Of a stretch of 64,000 nt of DNA, positions 361 to 1,100 are shown piece after piece (position 1 is the first letter of the stretch; each line of letters begins with the position of its first letter). The stretch covers positions 96,001-160,000 of the IMG/VR virus record IMGVR_UViG_3300047469_000312; one strand, given 5' to 3'. The notes below the pieces were generated by a model. It was not told the DNA's origin and did no database searches. It saw nothing but the letters and a program-made list of their open reading frames with translations. Source of the stretch: a virus. The position numbers and the translations under genes were made by a program.

Positions 361-453
361 TCTAATGCTGACGCTACGGGCACGCGTTAGTAGTTGTACA
401 CACTAGCCCACTTATCGCAATAGTCTTTTACAACTTAAACAAGGAGCTTCAAA

Positions 454-1011
454 ATGGGTATCATCAAGGCAATCTTCGGTTCCAAAGAAATCCAAATCGA
501 ACAACTGGAAATCCTTTTCCACACGGAAGCCGCGTACTTTGGTGAGCATGGTCGTCTGATCGCCAGCAACCGTTCGCTCGGCATCATCGAGAAGGAAGTG
601 ATCTTCTGCCTGAAGGGTCACACGACGCCGTTGCCGCTGAACCATCGCCTGTTCGCGCACATCTGGAAGGAAGCGCAAGCGCAGGGCTTCATCCCGCTCG
701 AACTCGCCAAGTACGGTTCGGTCATCGAGTCCGCGGAACCCGATGCCCTGGCTGCGCATAAGCGCGTTCTGGCCATCATGGTCGAACACGGTCAGGCTCC
801 GGCGCTCGCCGATGGTCGCCAGGCGCTGCACATGAACCTGGGTAGCACGTCGGCGGCTGAAGCGGAAGCCGCAGTCTCGAGCGCGATGGCATCCGCTGCT
901 GCGACGAGCGGGCGTGATTACAGCGCGGTCGAAGTGCCTGCGTTCCTGCGCAAACAGCAGGCTGAAGGCGACGGCTTCCAGACGGCAGGCTTCGCTGCTG
1001 CACAAAGCTAA
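454..1011 (+). CDS. hypothetical protein with Ala/Ser linker and FtsZ C-terminal-peptide-like motif (DYSAVEVPAFLRKQ)
   Basis: Strong SD AAGGAG; motif closely resembles FtsZ DYLDIPAFLRKQAD; followed by hairpin. Confidence 0.75.
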   Translation: MGIIKAIFGSKEIQIEQLEILFHTEAAYFGEHGRLIASNRSLGIIEKEVIFCLKGHTTPLPLNHRLFAHIWKEAQAQGFIPLELAKYGSVIESAEPDALAAHKRVLAIMVEHGQAPALADGRQALHMNLGSTSAAEAEAAVSSAMASAAATSGRDYSAVEVPAFLRKQQAEGDGFQTAGFAAAQS

Positions 1012-1023
1012 GTAAGCCAAGTC

Positions 1024-1049
1024 GAGGAGCTTCCTACGGGGAGCTCCTC
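1024..1049 (+). terminator. GC hairpin after gene 454-1011
   Basis: GAGGAGCTTC-ctacgg-GGAGCTCCTC. Confidence 0.6.
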
Positions 1050-1100
1050 CGCTGGGTGTACTTCCTTTTTATTTCCGTTACTGCAACGAGGAGCTTTACC

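Follow-up and report, generated by a model that had tools for sequence, protein, structure and literature searches.

The locus considered here raises the question of why a bacteriophage should encode what looks like the C-terminal tail of the bacterial cell-division protein FtsZ, and what the protein that carries this tail might do in an infected cell. The gene lies near the start of a 64,000-nucleotide stretch (the window, along which all positions are counted) within a 172-kilobase (kb) IMG/VR virus record, IMGVR_UViG_3300047469_000312, and its product is referred to below as P0001. A first-pass annotation of the window had placed an FtsZ-like motif at nucleotides 916–957, after an Ala/Ser-rich linker in the open reading frame (ORF) at 454–1011, and had read the protein as a mimic of the FtsZ tail; the coordinates proved exact on translation (D155–Q168 after S131–G153), and the resemblance was borne out by conservation and by PDB, whole-genome, and reciprocal profile searches. 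That residues 155–168 are a real, selected look-alike of the conserved C-terminal peptide of FtsZ is well supported by these sequence comparisons. The gene and the parts of its product are as follows.

454–1011, plus strand: P0001 gene, stop codon included, from the ORF list and its translation; the product has 185 residues.
454–489, plus strand: residues 1–12 (MGIIKAIFGSKE), hydrophobic/basic and amphipathic-helix-like, a putative membrane-targeting sequence whose pattern recurs across the family.
502–729, plus strand: residues 17–92, a small alpha/beta domain (three strands, helix, strand), here the N-domain; predicted local distance difference test (pLDDT) scores of 85–95 in an AlphaFold model, and a match to PHROG 19581.
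742–813, plus strand: residues 97–120, a helical insert with predicted helices at 98–111 and 116–119 (pLDDT ~55).
844–912, plus strand: residues 131–153, the Ala/Ser-rich linker, from the alignment and a pLDDT of 41–51.
916–957, plus strand: residues 155–168 (DYSAVEVPAFLRKQ), the look-alike of the FtsZ conserved C-terminal peptide, from translation, alignment, and reciprocal profiles.
973–1002, plus strand: residues 174–183 (GFQTAGFAAA), a second short motif, G[FH]x[ST]AGFxAA, in which G174, F180, and A183 are nearly invariant within the clade.

The tail of Escherichia coli FtsZ (residues 370–383) reads DYLDIPAFLRKQAD, and the reading from the genome record is KEPDYLDIPAFLRKQAD; the FtsZ tails used for comparison throughout are those of E. 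coli and of sampled bacterial genomes and may not be those of the phage's host. When P0001 was aligned with 18 homologues (94% to 43% identity), the pattern [DE][VI]P[AT][FY][LM]R was kept in all 19 proteins, with P162 and R166 invariant, while the linker in front of it drifted in length and sequence. Whether PAFLR is conserved while its flanks drift was the check that the first-pass annotation had proposed, and the homologues behave in just this way. The changes that do occur within the motif among close relatives (F164Y, E160D, and those at the A158 position) are also seen in FtsZ tails. As a class, such tails follow the consensus [DE]-[IV]-P-x-[FY]-[LM]-[RK]-[RKNQ] with an acidic/aromatic upstream flank, a form to which EVPAFLRKQ after DYS conforms, and they sit on a disordered linker of variable length, a trait that P0001 shares as judged from linker variation among the homologues and from low pLDDT (41–53 from residue 120 onward in the AlphaFold model). 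Within the variable linker, one stretch, EAxxAVxGA, is semi-conserved, and A137 is invariant. The reading frame as a whole shows an excess of synonymous over non-synonymous changes relative to two close relatives (28:9 and 34:19), which indicates that it is real and under purifying selection.

The resemblance is also specific. A hidden Markov model (HMM) of the 18 phage tails, searched against 177,635 distinct PDB sequences, returned three matches with an expectation value (E) of 10 or less, all of them extreme C-termini of FtsZ. Searched in six frames against 61 whole genomes of one bacterial class, the same model found a match in 57, and in 53 of these 57 the best match lay in an open frame of FtsZ size (381–525 codons); that the match is the 3′ end of ftsZ was confirmed for 28 genomes, 21 by ftsZ coordinates and 12 by reading of the loci, with 5 in both sets. 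One of the genomes counted, G038, is flagged as unpublished, and none of the sequences given here is taken from it. In the reciprocal direction, an HMM of 30 FtsZ tails run against the 3,224 six-frame segments of the phage record recovered the P0001 ORF alone (E 0.0025, 14.9 bits), the next segment scoring 5.4 bits. The best-matching bacterial tail that was read, PDYSDLDIPAFLRKQAD (genome G036), has the same spacing of the DYS flank as the phage peptide. A single-sequence phmmer search of the tail against the PDB gave parvalbumin only (E 0.89), a chance match, and a search of longer proteins by word index, with only the tail as query, gave nothing at E ≤ 10, an uninformative outcome given that the region is too short for the size of the database.

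No FtsZ or tubulin GTPase core was found on P0001 with Pfam or NCBIfam, and the FtsZ model TIGR00065 matches nothing in the phage record; with no tubulin-fold GTPase attached, P0001 is a mimic rather than an FtsZ. It shares with the C-terminal peptide of FtsZ (PDB sequences 2vaw, 9isk, and 8h1o) the consensus D-[YF]-x(1-3)-[DE]-[IV]-P-A-[FY]-L-R-[KR]-Q and the position after a disordered linker of variable length, and differs in that it continues for 17 residues bearing the second motif where FtsZ ends, and in carrying a membrane-type segment at its N-terminus. As a separate observation on FtsZ itself, many FtsZ proteins of the sampled class have a second, internal tail-like motif, DYxxL[DE]RP[TA][YVFI][MI]R[NKQ], some 25–40 residues before the terminal peptide (seen at the ftsZ 3′ ends L088, L089, L091, L094, L095, L096, and L098). 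This agrees with the suggestion made in PMC10769210 that the FtsZ linker contains a second region that binds ZipA.

Beyond the close homologues, an exhaustive profile search recovered 183 clusters (E ≤ 0.001) that share the N-terminal part with P0001, of which 168 were aligned for an analysis of 150 non-redundant tails. Of the 150, 15 contain the strict motif, whereas 500 shuffles yielded 0.044 on average and never more than 1, a more than 300-fold enrichment; when the family's tails are written in a reduced alphabet, no other 6-mer comes close to recurring as often. In a tree of the N-domain alone, the motif bearers form at least two clades that are well supported and well separated, with others scattered as single rows, and at least six gains or losses of the motif are required by branches with strong support; the domain is short and the tree partly poorly resolved, and no number of independent gains is claimed. 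In the distant members the motif is internal and is followed by 17–180 unrelated residues, and degenerate forms, [IV]PAV[VQFW]R and LPEFLRKQ, occur in others. These distant motif-bearing relatives come from contigs of 1.3–1.5 kb devoid of genomic context, with no closer cultured phage. Family tails are in general very varied, some members having C-terminal extensions of up to ~340 residues, as on a modular scaffold. The family profile finds a single copy in each phage genome. No relatives of P0001 were found in bacteria or archaea in one genome from each of 185,579 species, and the family is phage-only. PHROG 19581 and the proteins ORF225 of Ralstonia phage RP12, gp244 of FLC1-1B, and the RSF1 homologue have a homologous N-terminal segment and alpha/beta domain and differ from P0001 in being shorter (98–135 residues) and in lacking both C-terminal motifs.

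Two parts of the protein that the first-pass annotation had not reported, the N-terminal segment and the second C-terminal motif, add to its description. Short hydrophobic/basic N-termini of the same pattern (for example MGIIKAIFGSKE, MSLLNLFLGRRAR, and MNILNALLGRKEK) are present in most of the 168 aligned family members, and in six relatives (P0043, P0058, P0063, P0074, P0122, and P0138) a transmembrane-like helix replaces the short segment; this exchange is the best evidence that the segment, which looks like a membrane anchor, is one. In the close relative at locus L006 the N-terminal sequence has been replaced (10 non-synonymous and 0 synonymous changes), with its hydrophobic/basic character retained. 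The N-terminal stretch of MinE targets the membrane, and residues 1–12 of P0001 resemble that of the E. coli protein (MALLDFFLSRKK) in having Met, then paired hydrophobic residues at i, i+1, i+4, and i+5, then basic residues; by the same measure, the hydrophobic moments are 0.33 for P0001, a moderate value, and 0.29 for E. coli MinE. The resemblance is one of pattern alone, the remainder of P0001 being unrelated to MinE. Variants of the second C-terminal motif also occur in distant family members, some of them without the FtsZ-like motif (P0024, P0043, P0059, P0068, and P0103). The idea that it copies the FtsZ strand TAGFD was rejected: the HMMER alignment was weak, with a negative score, and outside Enterobacterales and Vibrionaceae the strand reads TAGLD, TAGMD, or TAGPD.

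The globular part that had been put at ~130 residues exists and is smaller, comprising only ~76 residues (17–92) plus a helix at 97–120 that belongs to the closest relatives; this helical insert is gapped in 12 of the 19 aligned sequences. The N-domain matches PHROG 19581 (E 5.1e-17, residues 8–94 against profile positions 10–96 of 108), a family to which no function is assigned. Its family-wide invariant residues are F22, H32, G33, F51, G55, A74, G78, and Y87, among which H32, in a GxHG loop, is the sole polar residue. A metal site formed by H23, H32, C52, and H69 was considered and rejected, H32 alone being conserved family-wide. For the N-domain, fold searches with the AlphaFold model gave nothing at E ≤ 0.001 with Foldseek against the PDB, no convincing match with VIA-align against 48,161 chains (best Z 3.5), and, in the ESM Atlas, template modelling scores of at most 0.32 and no usable match by feature search; a fold search of BFVD returned only uncharacterized relatives from RP12 and RSF1.

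The setting is that of a jumbo phage, as had been supposed: the related records measure 310–322 kb and all carry a PhuZ-like tubulin. The record that contains the window is itself estimated to be ~54% complete. Its nearest records are two uncultured viral contigs (311 and 315 kb, one with terminal repeats) and the Burkholderia glumae phage FLC9 (322 kb), and a shorter relative of P0001 is found in the Ralstonia jumbo phages RP12, RP31, FLC1-1B, and FLC4-3B. PhuZ-like tubulins of ~337 residues were present in five of the five phage records searched, matching PF00091 at E ~2e-8, just below the curated cut-off; that of the window's phage has 334 residues (L101:1468–2472 on G000:C1, outside the window; PF00091 E 2.8e-8) and ends without an FtsZ-type tail. 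The presence of such a tubulin in all five records fits a phiKZ-like, possibly nucleus-forming, jumbo phage.

The reading that we favor, tentatively and at somewhat under an even chance, is that P0001 is a membrane-associated decoy for the proteins that bind the FtsZ tail (FtsA, ZipA, and others), by which division of the infected cell would be delayed or blocked. The FtsZ tail is described in PMC10769210 as the docking site for FtsA, ZipA, MinC, and others, and the same paper, with its reference to Du et al. 2015, reports that the isolated monomeric tail binds ZipA weakly, with a dissociation constant of about 20–35 µM, that it becomes a ligand of high avidity once FtsZ oligomerizes, and that free fragments of FtsZ 354–383 inhibit the growth of E. 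coli. P0001 can be described as built of five elements, namely an amphipathic-helix-like segment, a 76-residue domain, a floppy linker, a copy of the FtsZ peptide, and a second short motif. On the proposed mechanism, the amphipathic segment would hold the protein at the inner face of the cytoplasmic membrane, and the peptide copy would fill the pockets that host proteins offer to the FtsZ tail, FtsA and ZipA being the first candidates and MinC, SlmA, ZapD, and ClpX further possible targets. Displayed at the membrane, the site of FtsA and ZipA, the peptide would be expected to compete for the anchors that FtsZ filaments use, and confinement to the membrane, possibly together with oligomerization through the N-domain, could raise local concentration or valency to what a weak monomeric peptide would need to compete. 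FtsZ filaments would then lose their anchors, and division would be delayed or would fail.

Several points weigh against a decoy. Most proteins of the N-domain family, those of the cultured Ralstonia phages RP12 and FLC1-1B among them, do without the motif, so that the core function of the family would lie elsewhere and the motif may serve targeting alone; the GxHG loop of the N-domain is strictly conserved, and a pure decoy would not need such a loop; and the hydrophobic moment of residues 1–12 is only moderate. An alternative, unlikely but deserving serious consideration, is that the N-domain is the working part of the protein and the FtsZ-like peptide an address label, in which case division need not be inhibited: the label could direct the N-domain to the division site, where FtsA or ZipA would receive it, or could draw FtsA and ZipA to a phage structure such as the PhuZ spindle or the phage nucleus. 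Such a role would suit the universal presence of the N-domain and N-terminal segment in the 183 clusters, compared with a motif found in about a fifth only, as well as the invariant GxHG loop, which suggests that the N-domain has a binding site of its own, and the PhuZ-like tubulin without an FtsZ-type tail that all related phages encode. It is harder to square with the inhibitory effect that free FtsZ tail fragments have by themselves (as reported in PMC10769210), with the N-terminal segment, by which P0001 seems to have a membrane anchor of its own and could reach the membrane without help from FtsA or ZipA, and with the empty outcome of the fold searches for the N-domain, which has no known partner.

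The same peptide might instead divert negative regulators or proteolysis, titrating MinC, SlmA, or ClpX so that Z-ring placement or FtsZ turnover, and not anchoring, is altered. The RKQ end that is present in the phage motif falls in the ClpX-recognized part of the E. coli FtsZ tail, which counts for this possibility. MinC, SlmA, and ClpX are indeed known to dock on the same peptide (partner list in PMC10769210), but the sequence gives no preference for them over FtsA or ZipA, the motif of the distant relatives is internal with no FtsZ-like end after it, and a lytic jumbo phage would draw no clear benefit, and we regard the proposal as improbable. Convergence on a helix motif whose partner is a phage protein or another host protein, the likeness to FtsZ being without functional meaning, seems to us quite unlikely: the degenerate [IV]PAV[VQFW]R variants do depart from typical FtsZ tails, and the second motif has no FtsZ counterpart, but the likeness spans 12–14 residues, the DYS flank and the KQ end among them, and three independent searches showed it to be specific and reciprocal. 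Chance resemblance in a functionless disordered tail, to which the shortness of the motif and the modest single-profile E-values (0.044 for the PDB, 0.0025 for the phage record) might lend some color, is barely credible in view of a motif kept in 19 of 19 close homologues, more than 300 times as frequent in the wider family as in shuffles, and encoded by a gene under purifying selection. A broader proposal, speculative and improbable as it stands, is that of a large, membrane-anchored jumbo-phage family with exchangeable host-imitating motifs, in which the two motifs of P0001 would form a "pseudo-FtsZ tail" that re-wires FtsA and ZipA to a phage structure (for example, by giving a tail-less PhuZ or the phage nucleus membrane attachment in trans), the division apparatus being taken over rather than switched off.

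The expression signals around the gene are as follows.

367–391, plus strand: hairpin between the upstream small ORF and the P0001 gene, with arms at 367–374 and 384–391 in the fold.
414–434, plus strand: leader/promoter block ATCGCAAyAryCTTTTACAAC (21 nucleotides), conserved upstream of the gene in the window, L005, L006, and FLC9.
441–446, plus strand: Shine-Dalgarno sequence AAGGAG, read directly, 7 nucleotides 5′ of the ATG.
1010–1074, plus strand: strong hairpin (1010–1063, core 1024–1049) followed by a U-rich tract.

With its own Shine-Dalgarno sequence, a hairpin on its 3′ side, another upstream, and a gene-specific leader block, the P0001 gene looks like a self-contained unit. Both the strong Shine-Dalgarno sequence and the 3′ hairpin had been reported in the first-pass annotation and were recovered here. 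The ribosome-binding site lies in a stretch, ACAAGGAG, that is invariant across four aligned loci. The 3′ hairpin, probably a terminator or 3′ stabilizer, has a perfect 11-base-pair core (1024–1034/1039–1049) and a folding energy of −33.2 kcal/mol (z = −4.74), a stability that not one shuffle in 200 equalled; a scan for consensus terminators did not call it, because the T-run begins ~12 nucleotides beyond the stem. The upstream hairpin at 367–391 is kept in three related phages through compensatory changes in its arms and is probably a terminator or stabilizer of the upstream unit. The block at 414–434 occurs once in the window even when three mismatches are allowed, and may be a gene-specific promoter or an element of translational control; a promoter motif common to other genes of the window was rejected, there being no recurrent k-mer and the conserved leader block being unique. 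A 202-codon frame on the opposite strand was dismissed as a shadow of the P0001 gene.

Between the window's phage and Burkholderia phage FLC9, the neighborhood of the gene is not conserved. Directly 5′ of the P0001 gene, at 193–360, is a 55-codon ORF that encodes a single transmembrane-like helix; FLC9 has at the same position a 55-codon, transmembrane-like ORF without detectable sequence similarity to it. Downstream, a 153-residue protein (1101–1562) has an N-terminus that locally matches strand 1 of the N-domain (IEFKFEYAAAYFRQHEA against LEILFHTEAAYFGEHGR, pairwise E 3e-4). It was rejected as a paralogue of P0001, since the match is local (33 residues only), the family profile misses it, and the family has one copy per genome; the match could be that of a very remote paralogue or due to chance. 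Rfam gives a weak match for the IS1222 frameshift element at 822–926, within the coding region; its 21.9 bits (E 0.13) fall short of the gathering score, 45, and the match is most likely due to chance.

Among known systems, the synthetic E. coli FtsZ 354–383 fragments (Savinov et al., as described in PMC10769210) are like P0001 in presenting a tail peptide free of the polymer; they are inhibitory and are predicted to dock on FtsA and ZipA. They differ in being laboratory products, whereas P0001 is encoded by a natural, conserved phage gene and has an extra domain and a putative membrane anchor. If the decoy reading is right, P0001 would be an evolution-tuned natural competitor of the contact between FtsZ and FtsA or ZipA, which is already an antibacterial target, and short-motif mimicry, familiar from eukaryotic viruses, would be used by phages too; the recurrence of the motif in separate clades of the family hints at a wider strategy. 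A full-text search of an incomplete literature library found no description of a phage protein with this motif, and the division-related papers that it returned for "PAFLR" all concern FtsZ itself.

Small division inhibitors that target the FtsZ ring are encoded by phages and prophages (Kil of lambda, Gp0.4 of T7, and DicB of Qin); they act by direct binding to FtsZ, ZipA, or MinC and are not known to mimic the tail of FtsZ. P0001 is like them in being a small phage-encoded protein, with targeting of the FtsZ ring putative on its side. No relation to them was apparent by sequence family (no match in Pfam, NCBIfam, or PADLOC, and a PHROG match of unassigned function) or by fold (no PDB match, and in BFVD only uncharacterized relatives). 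Should P0001 act as a decoy, imitation of the docking peptide of FtsZ would be a route to the division apparatus that differs from that of the known phage proteins, which bind FtsZ or its regulators.

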